In this document: positions 30,238 to 31,753 of the stretch, piece after piece
Layout: every line of letters begins with the position of its first letter
Position numbering within the stretch: the first letter of the stretch is position 1
Assembly (NCBI GenBank): GCA_026004215.1
Contig: BPIR01000002.1
Span: forward strand, 1,115,031 to 1,179,030
Source: Candidatus Binatia bacterium
Lineage (GTDB): Bacteria; Desulfobacterota; Binatia; HRBIN30
Length of the DNA: 64,000 nucleotides
Reading direction: 5' to 3'
Program-made: the position numbers and the translations under genes
Notes under the pieces: model-generated
What the model saw: only the letters and a program-made list of their open reading frames with translations
Databases searched by the model: none
Told to the model about the DNA's origin: nothing

Positions 30238-30919
30238 ATGCCTTACGACCCGGAACGGCACCATCGCCGCAGCATCCGCCTGAAGGGGTACGATTACACC
30301 CAGCCTGGGGCGTATTTCGTCACCATTTGCACCCATGACCGGGCATGCCTGTTCGGCGAGGTGGTGGATGGACAGATGCGGTTGAACGAGGCAGGGTCAC
30401 GTCGCACAACGATGTTGGGCCGACATACCGAACCATTTCCCGCACGTTCAATTGGATGCATTCATCATCATGCCCAACCATGTGCATGGCATTTTGGTGA
30501 TTGCCCATTACGTCGGTAGGGGCGAAAAATTTTTCGCCCCTACCATCCCCACATTCGCCCCTACCATCCCCACATTCGCCCCTACCATTCCCATCTTCGC
30601 CCTCTACCATCACCGTTTTCGCCCCTTAGATCCACCGCCGCCGCACGACCATCACCCGCGGGGTACATCGAAAACCATCGGTTCGGTGATTCGCGGATTC
30701 AAAATCGGGGTGACCAAATGGTTCCGCCTGAATGCCGGCATTGAGTCCGTTCTGGCAACGCAATTATTACGAACACATCATCCGTGACGAACGATCCCTG
30801 AACCGCATCCGCGAATACATCGCCACCAACCCCCTGCGCTGGCACCTCGACCGCGAAAACCCTGCCCGAAGCGGCACGAATCCCCTGGAGGAGGAATGGT
30901 TCGGGTAACAAGGCGTTCT
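30238..30919 (+). pseudogene. Y1/HuH transposase (IS200/RAYT-like) copy A. It carries at least two frameshifts.
   Basis: The N-terminus is MPYDPERHHRRSIRLKGYDYTQPGAYFVTICT. The HuH region, a repeat block and the GTSKTIGSVIRGFKIGVTKWFRLNAG segment share one frame. The N-terminus and the NYYEHIIRDE...EEEWFG tail are in other frames. Confidence 0.65.
30516..30628 (+). repeat. Copy A: REP-like palindrome GTAGGGGCGAAAAATTTTTCGCCCCTAC plus about four tandem half-site units (CCAYYCCCAYMTTCGCCCCTAC), all embedded in transposase copy A.
   Basis: The repeats were read directly. None of the three forward frames has a stop codon. Confidence 0.6.
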
Positions 30920-31056
30920 GTGTCGCGTGACCCTCGCGCCGTGGACGACGTGGTGTTTGATGTCTTGGGTTTGACGGCCGGGGAGCGGAAGGCGGTGTAC
31001 GAGGCGGTAATTGAGCTCGTCCGCGCGCGGCTGGAGAAGGCAAGGAGTGTATAGCC

Positions 31057-31753
31057 ATGCCTTACGACCCGGAACGGCGCCATCGCCGTAGCATCCGCCT
31101 GAAGGGGTACGATTACACCCAGCCTGGGGCGTATTTCGTCACCCTTTGCACCTTAAACCGGCAGTGCCTGTTCGGCGAGGTGGTGGATGGACAGATGCGG
31201 TTGAACGAGGCAGGTCACGTCGCACAACGATGTTGGGCCGACATACCGAACCATTTCCCGCATGTTCAATTGGATGCATTCATCGTCATGCCCAACCATG
31301 TGCATGGCGTTTTGGTGATTGCCCATCACGTGGTAGGGGCGAAAAATTTTTCGCCCCTACCATTCCCATCTTCGCCCCTACCATTACACCACATTCGCCC
31401 CTACCATTCCCATTTTCGCCCCCTACCATTACCACCACATTCGCCCCCACCATCACCGTTTTCGCCCCTGGATCCACCGCCGCTGCACGCATCTCCCTTG
31501 CGGGGTACATCGAAAAACCATCGGTTCGGTGATTCGCGGATTTAAAATCGGGGGTGGACCAGAATGGTTCCGCCTGAATGCCGGCATTCAGTCCGTATGG
31601 CAACGCAACTACTACGAACACATCATCCGTGACGAACGATCCCTGAACCGCATCCGCGAATACATCGCCACCAATCCCCTGCGCTGGCACCTCGACCGCG
31701 AAAACCCTGAGCGGACCGGCACGAATCCCCTGGAGGAGGAATGGTTCGGGTAA
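31057..31753 (+). pseudogene. Y1/HuH transposase (IS200/RAYT-like) copy B. The N-terminus is intact through HuH, and the C-terminal catalytic-Tyr region is in a different frame.
   Basis: The N-terminal sequence MPYDPERRHRRSIRLKGYDYTQPGAYFVTLCT...VMPNHVHGVLVI runs into a repeat-encoded Pro-rich stretch and stops. The sequence IRGFKIGG...WQRNYYEHIIRDERSLNRIREYIATNPLRWHLDRENPERTGTNPLEEEWFG is in another frame. Confidence 0.65.
31333..31469 (+). repeat. Copy B: REP-like palindrome GTAGGGGCGAAAAATTTTTCGCCCCTAC plus five tandem half-site units, all embedded in transposase copy B.
   Basis: This has the same architecture and relative position as in copy A, but copy B has one more half-site unit than copy A. 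Confidence 0.6.

Follow-up and report, generated by a model that had tools for sequence, protein, structure and literature searches.

A 64,000-nucleotide stretch of a Candidatus Binatia genome (contig BPIR01000002.1; this whole stretch is called the window below) contains at positions 29983-31956 a degraded tandem array of copies of a gene for a REP-associated tyrosine transposase (RAYT), where REP stands for repetitive extragenic palindrome. The members of the array are named fragment 0, A, B and C. In copies A and B a perfect palindrome followed by tandem repeats of its right arm lies within the coding sequence, just past the HuH (histidine-hydrophobic residue-histidine) motif, and copy C ends in a palindrome with the same feet. 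This block is probably the transposase's own REP element, built into its gene; we estimate the probability of this reading at roughly 80%. The features of copies A, B and C are listed below.

30238..30908, plus strand: copy A of the subclass 2.4 TnpA(REP)/RAYT gene, with two frameshifts (single surplus bases, one at the GGG run 30394-30396 and one near 30750)
30476..30487, plus strand: HuH codons of copy A, AAC CAT GTG CAT, encoding NHVH
30516..30543: double-foot REP embedded in copy A, a perfect 28-nt palindrome read as xGT AGG GGC (..GRGEKFFAPT)
30533..30640, plus strand: right-arm (half-REP) tandem array of copy A, five units at 30533, 30554, 30575, 30596 and 30618
31057..31753, plus strand: copy B of the RAYT gene, with one frameshift (an extra A in the run 31513-31517, just past RGTSK)
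31294..31305, plus strand: HuH codons of copy B, encoding NHVH
31333..31360: double-foot REP embedded in copy B, read as GTA GGG GCG (VGAKNFSPLP), the commonest phase among homologues
31350..31480, plus strand: right-arm tandem array of copy B, six units at 31350, 31371, 31394, 31415, 31440 and 31461
31805..31927, plus strand: copy C, a fragment of a diverged RAYT paralogue (..FPHVVLGALVVMPNHVHGIIVLVGPDD) with NHVH present
31928..31956: REP embedded in copy C, a 29-nt palindrome GTAGGGGCGGGTTCGAAACCCGCCCCTAC read as VGAGSKPAPT

The palindrome of copies A and B is GTAGGGGCGAAAAATTTTTCGCCCCTAC in both. It starts two to three codons past ..HVHG(I/V)LVIAH, not three to four as stated in the first-pass annotation, which otherwise described correctly the two perfect palindromes and the third one, with the same feet and a different centre, at the equivalent site of copy C. 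All three, 28-29 nt long and bearing GTAG and its complement at opposite ends, fit the definition of a REP as a GTAG-tagged palindrome of 20-40 nt (Di Nocera et al. 2013, PMC3733652). Six palindromes with these feet were found in the window, three of them outside the RAYT copies, and all have the double-foot form GTAG-GGG-C...G-CCC-CTAC (at 30516, 31333, 31928, 23005, 46440 and 46566). The pattern GTAGGGGC..GCCCCTAC occurs six times in the window with 0.00 occurrences expected, and TTCGCCCCTAC with at most one mismatch occurs 15 times with 0.9 expected.

The tandem units after the palindrome, also noted at first pass, repeat its right arm (..TTCGCCCCTAC plus 10-14 nt). Tandem Repeats Finder reports period 21 at 30533-30626 (4.4 copies) and period 21/46 at 31350-31469 (5.4 copies). 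Listed by hand, the units measure 21, 21, 21, 22 and 23 nt in copy A and 21, 23, 21, 25, 21 and 20 nt in copy B. In single-stranded DNA folds pairing is confined to the palindrome, with 13-14 bp, energies of -15.9 and -17.3 kcal/mol and z-scores of -4.4 and -3.4; the arrays remain open. The RNA fold of copy B contains a 15-bp hairpin (z -4.8), the array again remaining open. The block is not a REPIN (two inverted REPs, separated by a spacer, that form a longer hairpin), since it has just one palindrome, and the units after it repeat one arm in direct orientation and do not pair. Nor is it an array of the CRISPR type: its period is 21-25 nt, there are no unique spacers, and it lies inside an open reading frame (ORF). 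An intrinsic terminator was judged unlikely by eye, as no T run is present 3' of the stem and the homologues read through the hairpin in frame. A search of positions 29500-32200 against Rfam (E up to 1) found only the three tRNAs upstream of the array and no known RNA family over the block.

The two copies read the block in different phases, copy A as GRGEKFFAPTIPTFAPT and copy B as VGAKNFSPLPFPSSPLP, and both regain the RGTSK segment in frame, as had been noticed before; the frameshifts lie outside the interval from HuH to RGTSK. The first-pass annotation had also found no stop codons in the three forward frames. This holds for the arrays, because their strand is nearly devoid of G (5 G in 83 nt in copy A, 6 G in 109 nt in copy B). 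It does not hold for the palindrome, where the GTAG foot brings a TAG (at 30517 and 31334) into one of the forward frames.

The encoded protein matches the NCBIfam family NF047646, REP_Tyr_transpos (E 4.7e-15, 55.7 bits, the curated cut-off being 80), and the Pfam domain PF01797, Y1_Tnp, the latter only once the insert is removed (E 0.0035, 17.9 bits, with a cut-off of 23). Among 120 listed homologues, a precomputed PF01797 domain is present in one (P0095). A profile built from 33 homologues has a sole match in the PDB, the E. coli TnpA(REP) structure 4ER8 (E 7.9e-6). In this alignment WQ, EH, R and the tyrosine of YIATNP correspond to W94/Q95, E100/H101, R104 and the catalytic Y115. Foldseek, run with an AlphaFold2 model, recovered the TnpA proteins of ISDra2 and IS608 as well as 4ER8 (root mean square deviation 3.3 A). 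Fold and motifs thus back the homology despite the scores below the cut-offs, and support the assignment of the protein to the Y1 HuH transposases of the TnpA(REP) kind. The insert of approximately 50-60 residues, made of DNA units of 20-25 nt, is placed between beta3 (HuH) and alphaC. In the AlphaFold2 model it separates the HuH strand (residues 81-88) from the helix 155-165, and residues ~89-154, covering the palindrome and the arrays, are predicted to lack secondary structure, with confidence (predicted local distance difference test, pLDDT) below 50.

A RAYT family of this kind has been described. According to the text and legends of Quentin, Siguier, Chandler and Fichant (2018, PMC6006769), subclass 2.4 of TnpA(Y1), identical to RAYT group 4 of Bertels, is defined by the motifs NH[IFV]H, WQ and YIxNNP, a variable insert between beta3 and alphaC, and long or double-foot REPs of the form GT[AG]G...C[TC]AC; an insertion of eight residues ending alphaB is a further criterion. 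The same pages state that the variability of the insert could stem from short DNA repeats (Fig. S6), that a REP with three G-C pairs at the foot may be inserted between HuH and Y without loss of frame, forming a peripheral loop in the model, and that REPs are found within about 1 kb of the gene in 'the large majority' of cases. Group 4 occurs commonly among Cyanobacteria, Chlorobia and Caldilineae (Bertels et al. 2017, PMC5581495). NHVH of copies A, B and C fits NH[IFV]H. The WQ motif is present in VWQRNYYEH, and the Y motif YIATNP deviates from YIxNNP at one position, with T for the first N; close homologues use both YIxTNP and YIxNNP. Without frameshift correction this region is out of frame in copy A. 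Separate REPs flanking the gene within about 1 kb are absent around copies A and B and present at many homologous loci (e.g. L003, L007, L018, L054, L058 and L069). Copies A, B and C belong to this subclass.

Thus the presence of a REP-type hairpin and its half-sites inside the coding sequence of the cognate transposase, as proposed in the first-pass annotation, is borne out by the RAYT identity, the GTAG/CTAC feet and the intergenic palindromes with the same feet, but an intragenic REP is not unusual, since it is a published hallmark of subclass 2.4. The finding is a rediscovery of this hallmark, in a new member from a new host, Candidatus Binatia. The proline-rich repeat stretch of copies A and B, together with the palindrome, is the signature of a known RAYT subfamily, and not of a new mobile element, an intein-like insert or an assembly artefact. 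To our knowledge, subclass 2.4 is the only HuH enzyme with its own DNA substrate inside its coding sequence.

The insert was then traced across the family. A protein search yielded at least 8000 homologues of 174-319 residues. An xGAx peptide derived from the left arm follows HuH in 104 of the 111 top matches having both anchors, 23 of which carry it more than once, and its commonest form, VGAKNFSPLP, is the direct translation of the window palindrome. A genome scan, with one genome per species and with patterns placed outside the insert, gave at least 585 confirmed relatives among the 600 matches listed. From many phyla, 80 loci (L001-L080) were examined, complete genomes included. Perfect stems of at least 8 bp between HuH and WQ were observed in 59 of 67 genes, compared to 3 of 65 for coding sequence of equal length just upstream of the insert and 4 of 67 for shuffled sequences. 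Stems of at least 10 bp were observed in 46 genes and never in the upstream or shuffled controls. A one-off insertion, which would have left the homologues without any insert, can be discarded, as in the homologue alignment the insertion is almost universal at this position.

The interval from HuH to WQ is in frame in 68 of 70 homologous genes, and therefore the insert is read through in intact genes. The caution at first pass that openness alone does not prove translation was right for the window, where the arrays cannot encode stops; it is the family that supplies the frame conservation. Strict REPs are read as GTA|GGG|GC in 30 cases and as xGT|AGG|GGC in five, and never in the TAG phase; copy B follows the majority here and copy A the minority. 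At loci having both an embedded and a flanking REP the two are identical or differ by one nucleotide in eight cases out of 11, compared to 5% of between-locus pairs.

Extra feet were found in 11 of 67 genes. Copies A and B, with one left and five right feet, are at the long end, and five to six right-arm units are at the long end of the relatives examined. A relative (L082) with 78-83% nucleotide identity has two right feet, compared to five in copy A and five to six in copy B, and therefore the array length changes faster than point substitutions accumulate.

Some homologues contain extreme arrays (P0076, P0053, P0092 and P0026), among them a protein of Thermosynechococcus sp. NK55a with ~25 PPHGM units after VGARHAVP. 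The VGAKNV left-arm unit is repeated nine times in P0053 and the VGAKH unit five times in P0092, and in P0026 two REP types alternate. Peptides derived from REPs are also observed as N- and C-terminal extensions, e.g. ..VGAR(C/R)(N/A)VPLPKDEPWRI, and the called ORFs often swallow flanking REPs.

The embedded REP varies in the manner of a DNA structure. Among 19 distinct embedded REPs of 28 nt, pairs 1-7 (GTAGGGG/CCCCTAC) are invariant, whereas pairs 8-14 have all changed on both sides. Paired cells constitute 97.7%, compared to 44-50% when the partners are slid, and the covariation score is 0.52 against 0.13 for shuffled sequences; since the set was selected on eight or more outer pairs, only pairs 9-14 are unbiased in these figures. 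A test independent of this selection was provided by codon usage. In VGA tripeptides after HuH, valine is encoded by GTA in 48 of 57 cases (84%), compared to 14% elsewhere in the same genes, and glycine by GGG in 53 of 57 (93%), compared to 27%. The centre peptide varies (AKNFS, ARHAV, AQHAA, AGLKPA, ATRRVA, AYCNT). The invariant foot, the compensatory inner pairs and the frozen synonymous sites indicate that the DNA is conserved as DNA and not as a peptide. The text and legends of PMC6006769 contain no mention of compensatory variation, frozen codons, a bias in phase or the agreement of embedded with flanking REPs, and a literature search found no paper on the embedded REP later than 2018. 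The invariant GTAGGGG foot, the compensatory pairs, the frozen synonymous sites and the identity to flanking REPs make the question of the embedded REP experimentally addressable in an intact relative, and the answer would bear on how REP populations are founded and stay matched to their enzyme.

The preferred reading is then as follows. The insert is read through as a disordered, proline-rich linker, whose peptide sequence is irrelevant. As the embedded REP usually matches the flanking ones, it is a member of the same REP population. Enzymes of groups 2 and 3 use GTAG and the lower stem to bind single-stranded REPs, which they cleave next to the hairpin, at CT or CA (PMC8266576). By analogy, the palindrome may extrude as a single-stranded hairpin and be recognised by its own enzyme via the GTAG guide and the lower stem, and the embedded copy would keep the enzyme and its substrate physically linked. 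The runs of right arms may be by-products of slippage, or of cleavage and rejoining beside the CTAC foot, with fast expansion and contraction. No stop is possible in any frame of the G-poor arrays, so their total length needs only to stay a multiple of three.

Several points weigh against this reading. Both family scores fall short of the curated cut-offs. The covariation set comprises palindromes selected for eight or more outer pairs, and its sequences are phylogenetically related; moreover, the compensatory pattern could arise without selection on the embedded copy, via repeated conversion from extragenic REPs. In the window, the extragenic REPs (23005, 46440, 46566) differ in their centres from those of copies A and B. 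Within 1 kb of either copy the only other REPs are those embedded in the adjacent paralogues. The enzymes in the biochemical work of PMC6006769 and PMC8266576 include no member of subclass 2.4, so binding and cleavage of the embedded REP are inferred from other groups. Finally, both copies are frameshifted, so nothing here is demonstrably expressed.

Among the alternatives, the one with the best standing, possible although well short of even odds, is that the REP is a passive passenger. On this view a REP inserted a single time into an ancestral RAYT, in a loop that tolerated it, and has persisted while serving neither the gene nor the spread of REPs; its palindromy and its identity to the neighbours would be kept only by conversion or re-insertion from extragenic REPs, and the arrays would reflect neutral slippage. 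Indeed, the insert is predicted to form a disordered peripheral loop and, as suggested in the text of PMC6006769, affects activity little. Eight of the 67 homologues have no recognisable foot and yet appear intact, some homologues have only degenerate or single-foot versions, and REPs are known in unrelated genes (PMC3733652). However, it is much to ask of neutrality that 59 of 67 genes from many phyla keep the REP at one site, its 7-nt foot invariant and its synonymous sites frozen, and conversion alone fails to explain a site kept at the many loci where no flanking REP is seen. Another possibility is a regulator at the RNA level, in which the mRNA hairpin delays ribosomes, makes the transcript more stable or attenuates translation, and thereby keeps the transposase low. 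The leader hairpin of IS200 keeps the level of its transposase low. The 15-bp RNA hairpin of copy B and G-U pairs at two inner positions agree with such a role, and an action at the RNA level has been argued for many REPs by Di Nocera et al. (PMC3733652). Still, a perfect palindrome with GTAG and CTAC feet has the look expected of a DNA substrate on either strand, and an invariant foot suits a guide sequence, whereas an RNA stem would tolerate changes there; we consider this explanation unlikely. Both the passenger and the RNA regulator are compatible with the assigned identity of the block and differ from the preferred reading only on function.

Selection on the peptide, the VGAxxxxPLP or proline-rich segment serving as a linker or an interaction motif and the palindrome being incidental, could account for the near-invariant V93, G94, A95 and P100 of the protein alignment and for the common phase of 30 of the 35 strict REPs. 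But the centre peptide changes freely while base pairing stays, copy A and five homologues read the same stretch in the alternative phase (GRGE..APT), and AlphaFold2 predicts disorder. The codons are fixed to GTA and GGG against the usage of the genes themselves, and on this test selection at the peptide level was rejected; we regard it as highly improbable. The chance that the block is a local artefact, that is, a secondary insertion or an assembly error of these degraded copies, is close to negligible. Copies A and B do differ by indels of the homopolymer type and are frameshifted, and tandem duplications are prone to assembly errors. On the other hand, copies A and B are distinct, as shown by the many substitutions between them, and the same palindrome occurs at the same codon position in independent assemblies from dozens of phyla, including complete genomes. 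The homologous loci thus exclude both a one-off insertion and an artefact.

Within the preferred reading, that of the transposase's own REP, a further role may be considered, although we hold it to be doubtful: the embedded REP could be not a passenger but a working part of a specificity cassette consisting of a REP and its reader. The REP is situated ~20 codons upstream of the segment from alphaC to WQ, which aligns with the REP-contacting K82-R98 of 4ER8, and therefore the hairpin and the reader helix could be inherited or exchanged between paralogues as one module. Among L001-L080 the REP centre pairs one-to-one with the type of the alphaC-to-WQ segment: AKNFS with GTSKTIGS..FKIGVTKW, ARHAV with GSIPTI.RSFKSA, AGLKPA with HGLPEIVRAFKTFSARR, AQHAA with PGSLG..RSFKSAVT, and ATRRVA with SIGAIIGQFKS. 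This pairing can be explained by shared descent too. The contig L081 contains three tandem RAYT paralogues (2329-2946, 3001-3606 and 3661-4326) with REP centres GACCCGTCGGGTC, GAAAAATTTTTC and ACGGCATGCCGT and differing alphaC. Their C-termini are identical at 48-51 of 53-57 positions (88-96%), the N-termini at 56-69 of 84-86, and the middles at 24-34 of 66-80. Such a mosaic suggests exchange or homogenisation around a candidate REP-plus-alphaC module and, together with the pairing of centres and alphaC types, suggests the REP-plus-reader cassette. The usual identity of embedded and flanking REPs also fits. If so, the embedded copy would be a protected master that seeds extragenic REPs after horizontal transfer, and the half-site arrays would be scars left where the enzyme has cut and rejoined DNA next to the CTAC foot of its own gene.

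The system can be compared with several known ones. With subclass 2.4 as given in the text of PMC6006769 it shares the motifs, the insert built of repeats, the double-foot REP, its in-frame intragenic position, the peripheral loop and the patchy spread over many phyla. It differs from the sample of that paper in the host, Candidatus Binatia, and in that the copies are frameshifted and tandemly duplicated together with a restriction-modification relic. The E. coli TnpA(REP)/RayT of the REPtron (4ER8) has the same Y1 HuH fold, aligned W/Q, E/H, R and Tyr residues and a GTAG-tagged single-stranded hairpin as its substrate. However, it belongs to subclass 2.2, its REPs are single-foot, imperfect, bulged and exclusively extragenic, its HuH motif is not followed by an insert, and its sequence similarity to the window protein is weak, at the profile E-value given above. 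The TnpA proteins of IS200/IS605 elements (IS608, ISDra2) have the same fold and recognise subterminal hairpins, a tetranucleotide guide 5' of the hairpin setting the cleavage site. Their hairpins, however, mark the ends of a mobile element bearing the gene and are outside the coding sequence, whereas no such ends are defined here. REPs in ORFs and the Rickettsia palindromic elements (RPE; PMC3733652) likewise are short palindromic repeats tolerated in coding sequences and read through. In those cases the host genes are unrelated to the enzyme of the repeat and the sites are mostly not conserved, whereas here the gene encodes the cognate enzyme and the site is conserved throughout the family.

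The remaining features of the array are its upstream end and the spacers between the RAYT copies.

29905-29978: tRNA-His
29983..30085, plus strand: fragment 0, the final ~34 codons of a RAYT copy, immediately 3' of tRNA-His (from tblastn and blastn searches of the window with the corrected copy B protein and the repeat unit, and from alignment)
30111..30235, plus strand: spacer 1, a relic 3' end of an MmeI/Eco57I-type IIG restriction-modification gene, with an indel
30929..31054, plus strand: spacer 2, a relic 3' end of an MmeI-like gene, reading frame intact

The window copies are part of a degraded tandem duplication, beside tRNA-His, of a unit consisting of the 3' end of an MmeI-like restriction-modification gene and the RAYT gene. 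Between the units 30089-30908 and 30908-31753 the identity is only 90.9% and substitutions are numerous, hence copies A and B are distinct. Neither is intact as assembled, and no other window copy is. Single-base corrections yield proteins of 222 residues for copy A and 231 for copy B, and, given their frameshifts outside the block, the two are either pseudogenes or assembly errors. In the annotation of the source metagenome-assembled genome, copy B is represented by a hypothetical protein of 162 residues (P0001, 99% identity, Candidatus Binatia bacterium KatS3mg077).

The spacers comprise the ~40 last codons of the restriction-modification gene, and spacer 1 has 85% nucleotide identity to the 3' end of an MmeI-like gene of ~1220 codons in L081 and L082; the peptide ..VVFDVLGLT.GEREAVYEAVIELVRARLEKARSV* is common to the spacers and the ends of the MmeI-like genes. 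A Pfam scan of the spacer peptide gave no match, and its identity came from the neighbours of the homologue P0002, an intact relative of 201 residues with 63% identity to copy B. The MmeI-like gene is upstream in the four contigs with the closest intact RAYT genes (L081-L084). In L082 and L083 this gene, intact and encoding ~1220 residues, stops 2 nt before the RAYT gene, and in L081 and L084 other genes lie between them. In the window the restriction-modification gene itself is gone and only the 3' relics remain. A cluster of tRNA-Pro(TGG), tRNA-Arg(TCT) and tRNA-His(GTG) at 29631-29978 is directly upstream of the degraded array, a position consistent with a decayed island at a tRNA gene.

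Copy C is truncated right after its REP, 44 nt ahead of the ATG at 32000 of a gene encoding a MoxR-like AAA+ ATPase (AAA_5 and AAA matches), and is in frame with this gene within the mechanical ORF 31769-32881. A near-identical REP was found at the same site in another Binatia genome (L069). The copy C REP, once intragenic, is now in a gene leader, and this could be one route from an embedded to an extragenic REP.

The REPs outside the RAYT copies are situated far from the array.

23005..23032: double-foot REP, apparently between genes, with a centre unlike those of copies A and B (GTAGGGGCGCACGGCCGTGCGCCCCTAC)
46440..46474: intergenic REP, imperfect, 35 nt, in a cluster resembling a bacterial interspersed mosaic element (BIME) between an amidase-like and a flavin oxidoreductase-like ORF, both named from reading of their translations only
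46566..46593: intergenic double-foot REP (GTAGGGGCACGGCGTGCCGTGCCCCTAC), with a heptamer array at 46504-46556 ahead of it

G-rich heptamer arrays precede the REPs at 23005 and 46566 on the G-rich strand (TGGCGAG, 7.6 copies, at 46504-46556). The 19 nt before and into the REP at 23005 (GTGGGGAAGTGTAGGGGCG) resemble the minus-strand junction of the intragenic units (GTGGGGATGGTAGGGGCG). The region 46383-46700 as a whole looks BIME-like, with a REP, the heptamer array, a second REP and a degenerate REP near 46621-46654.

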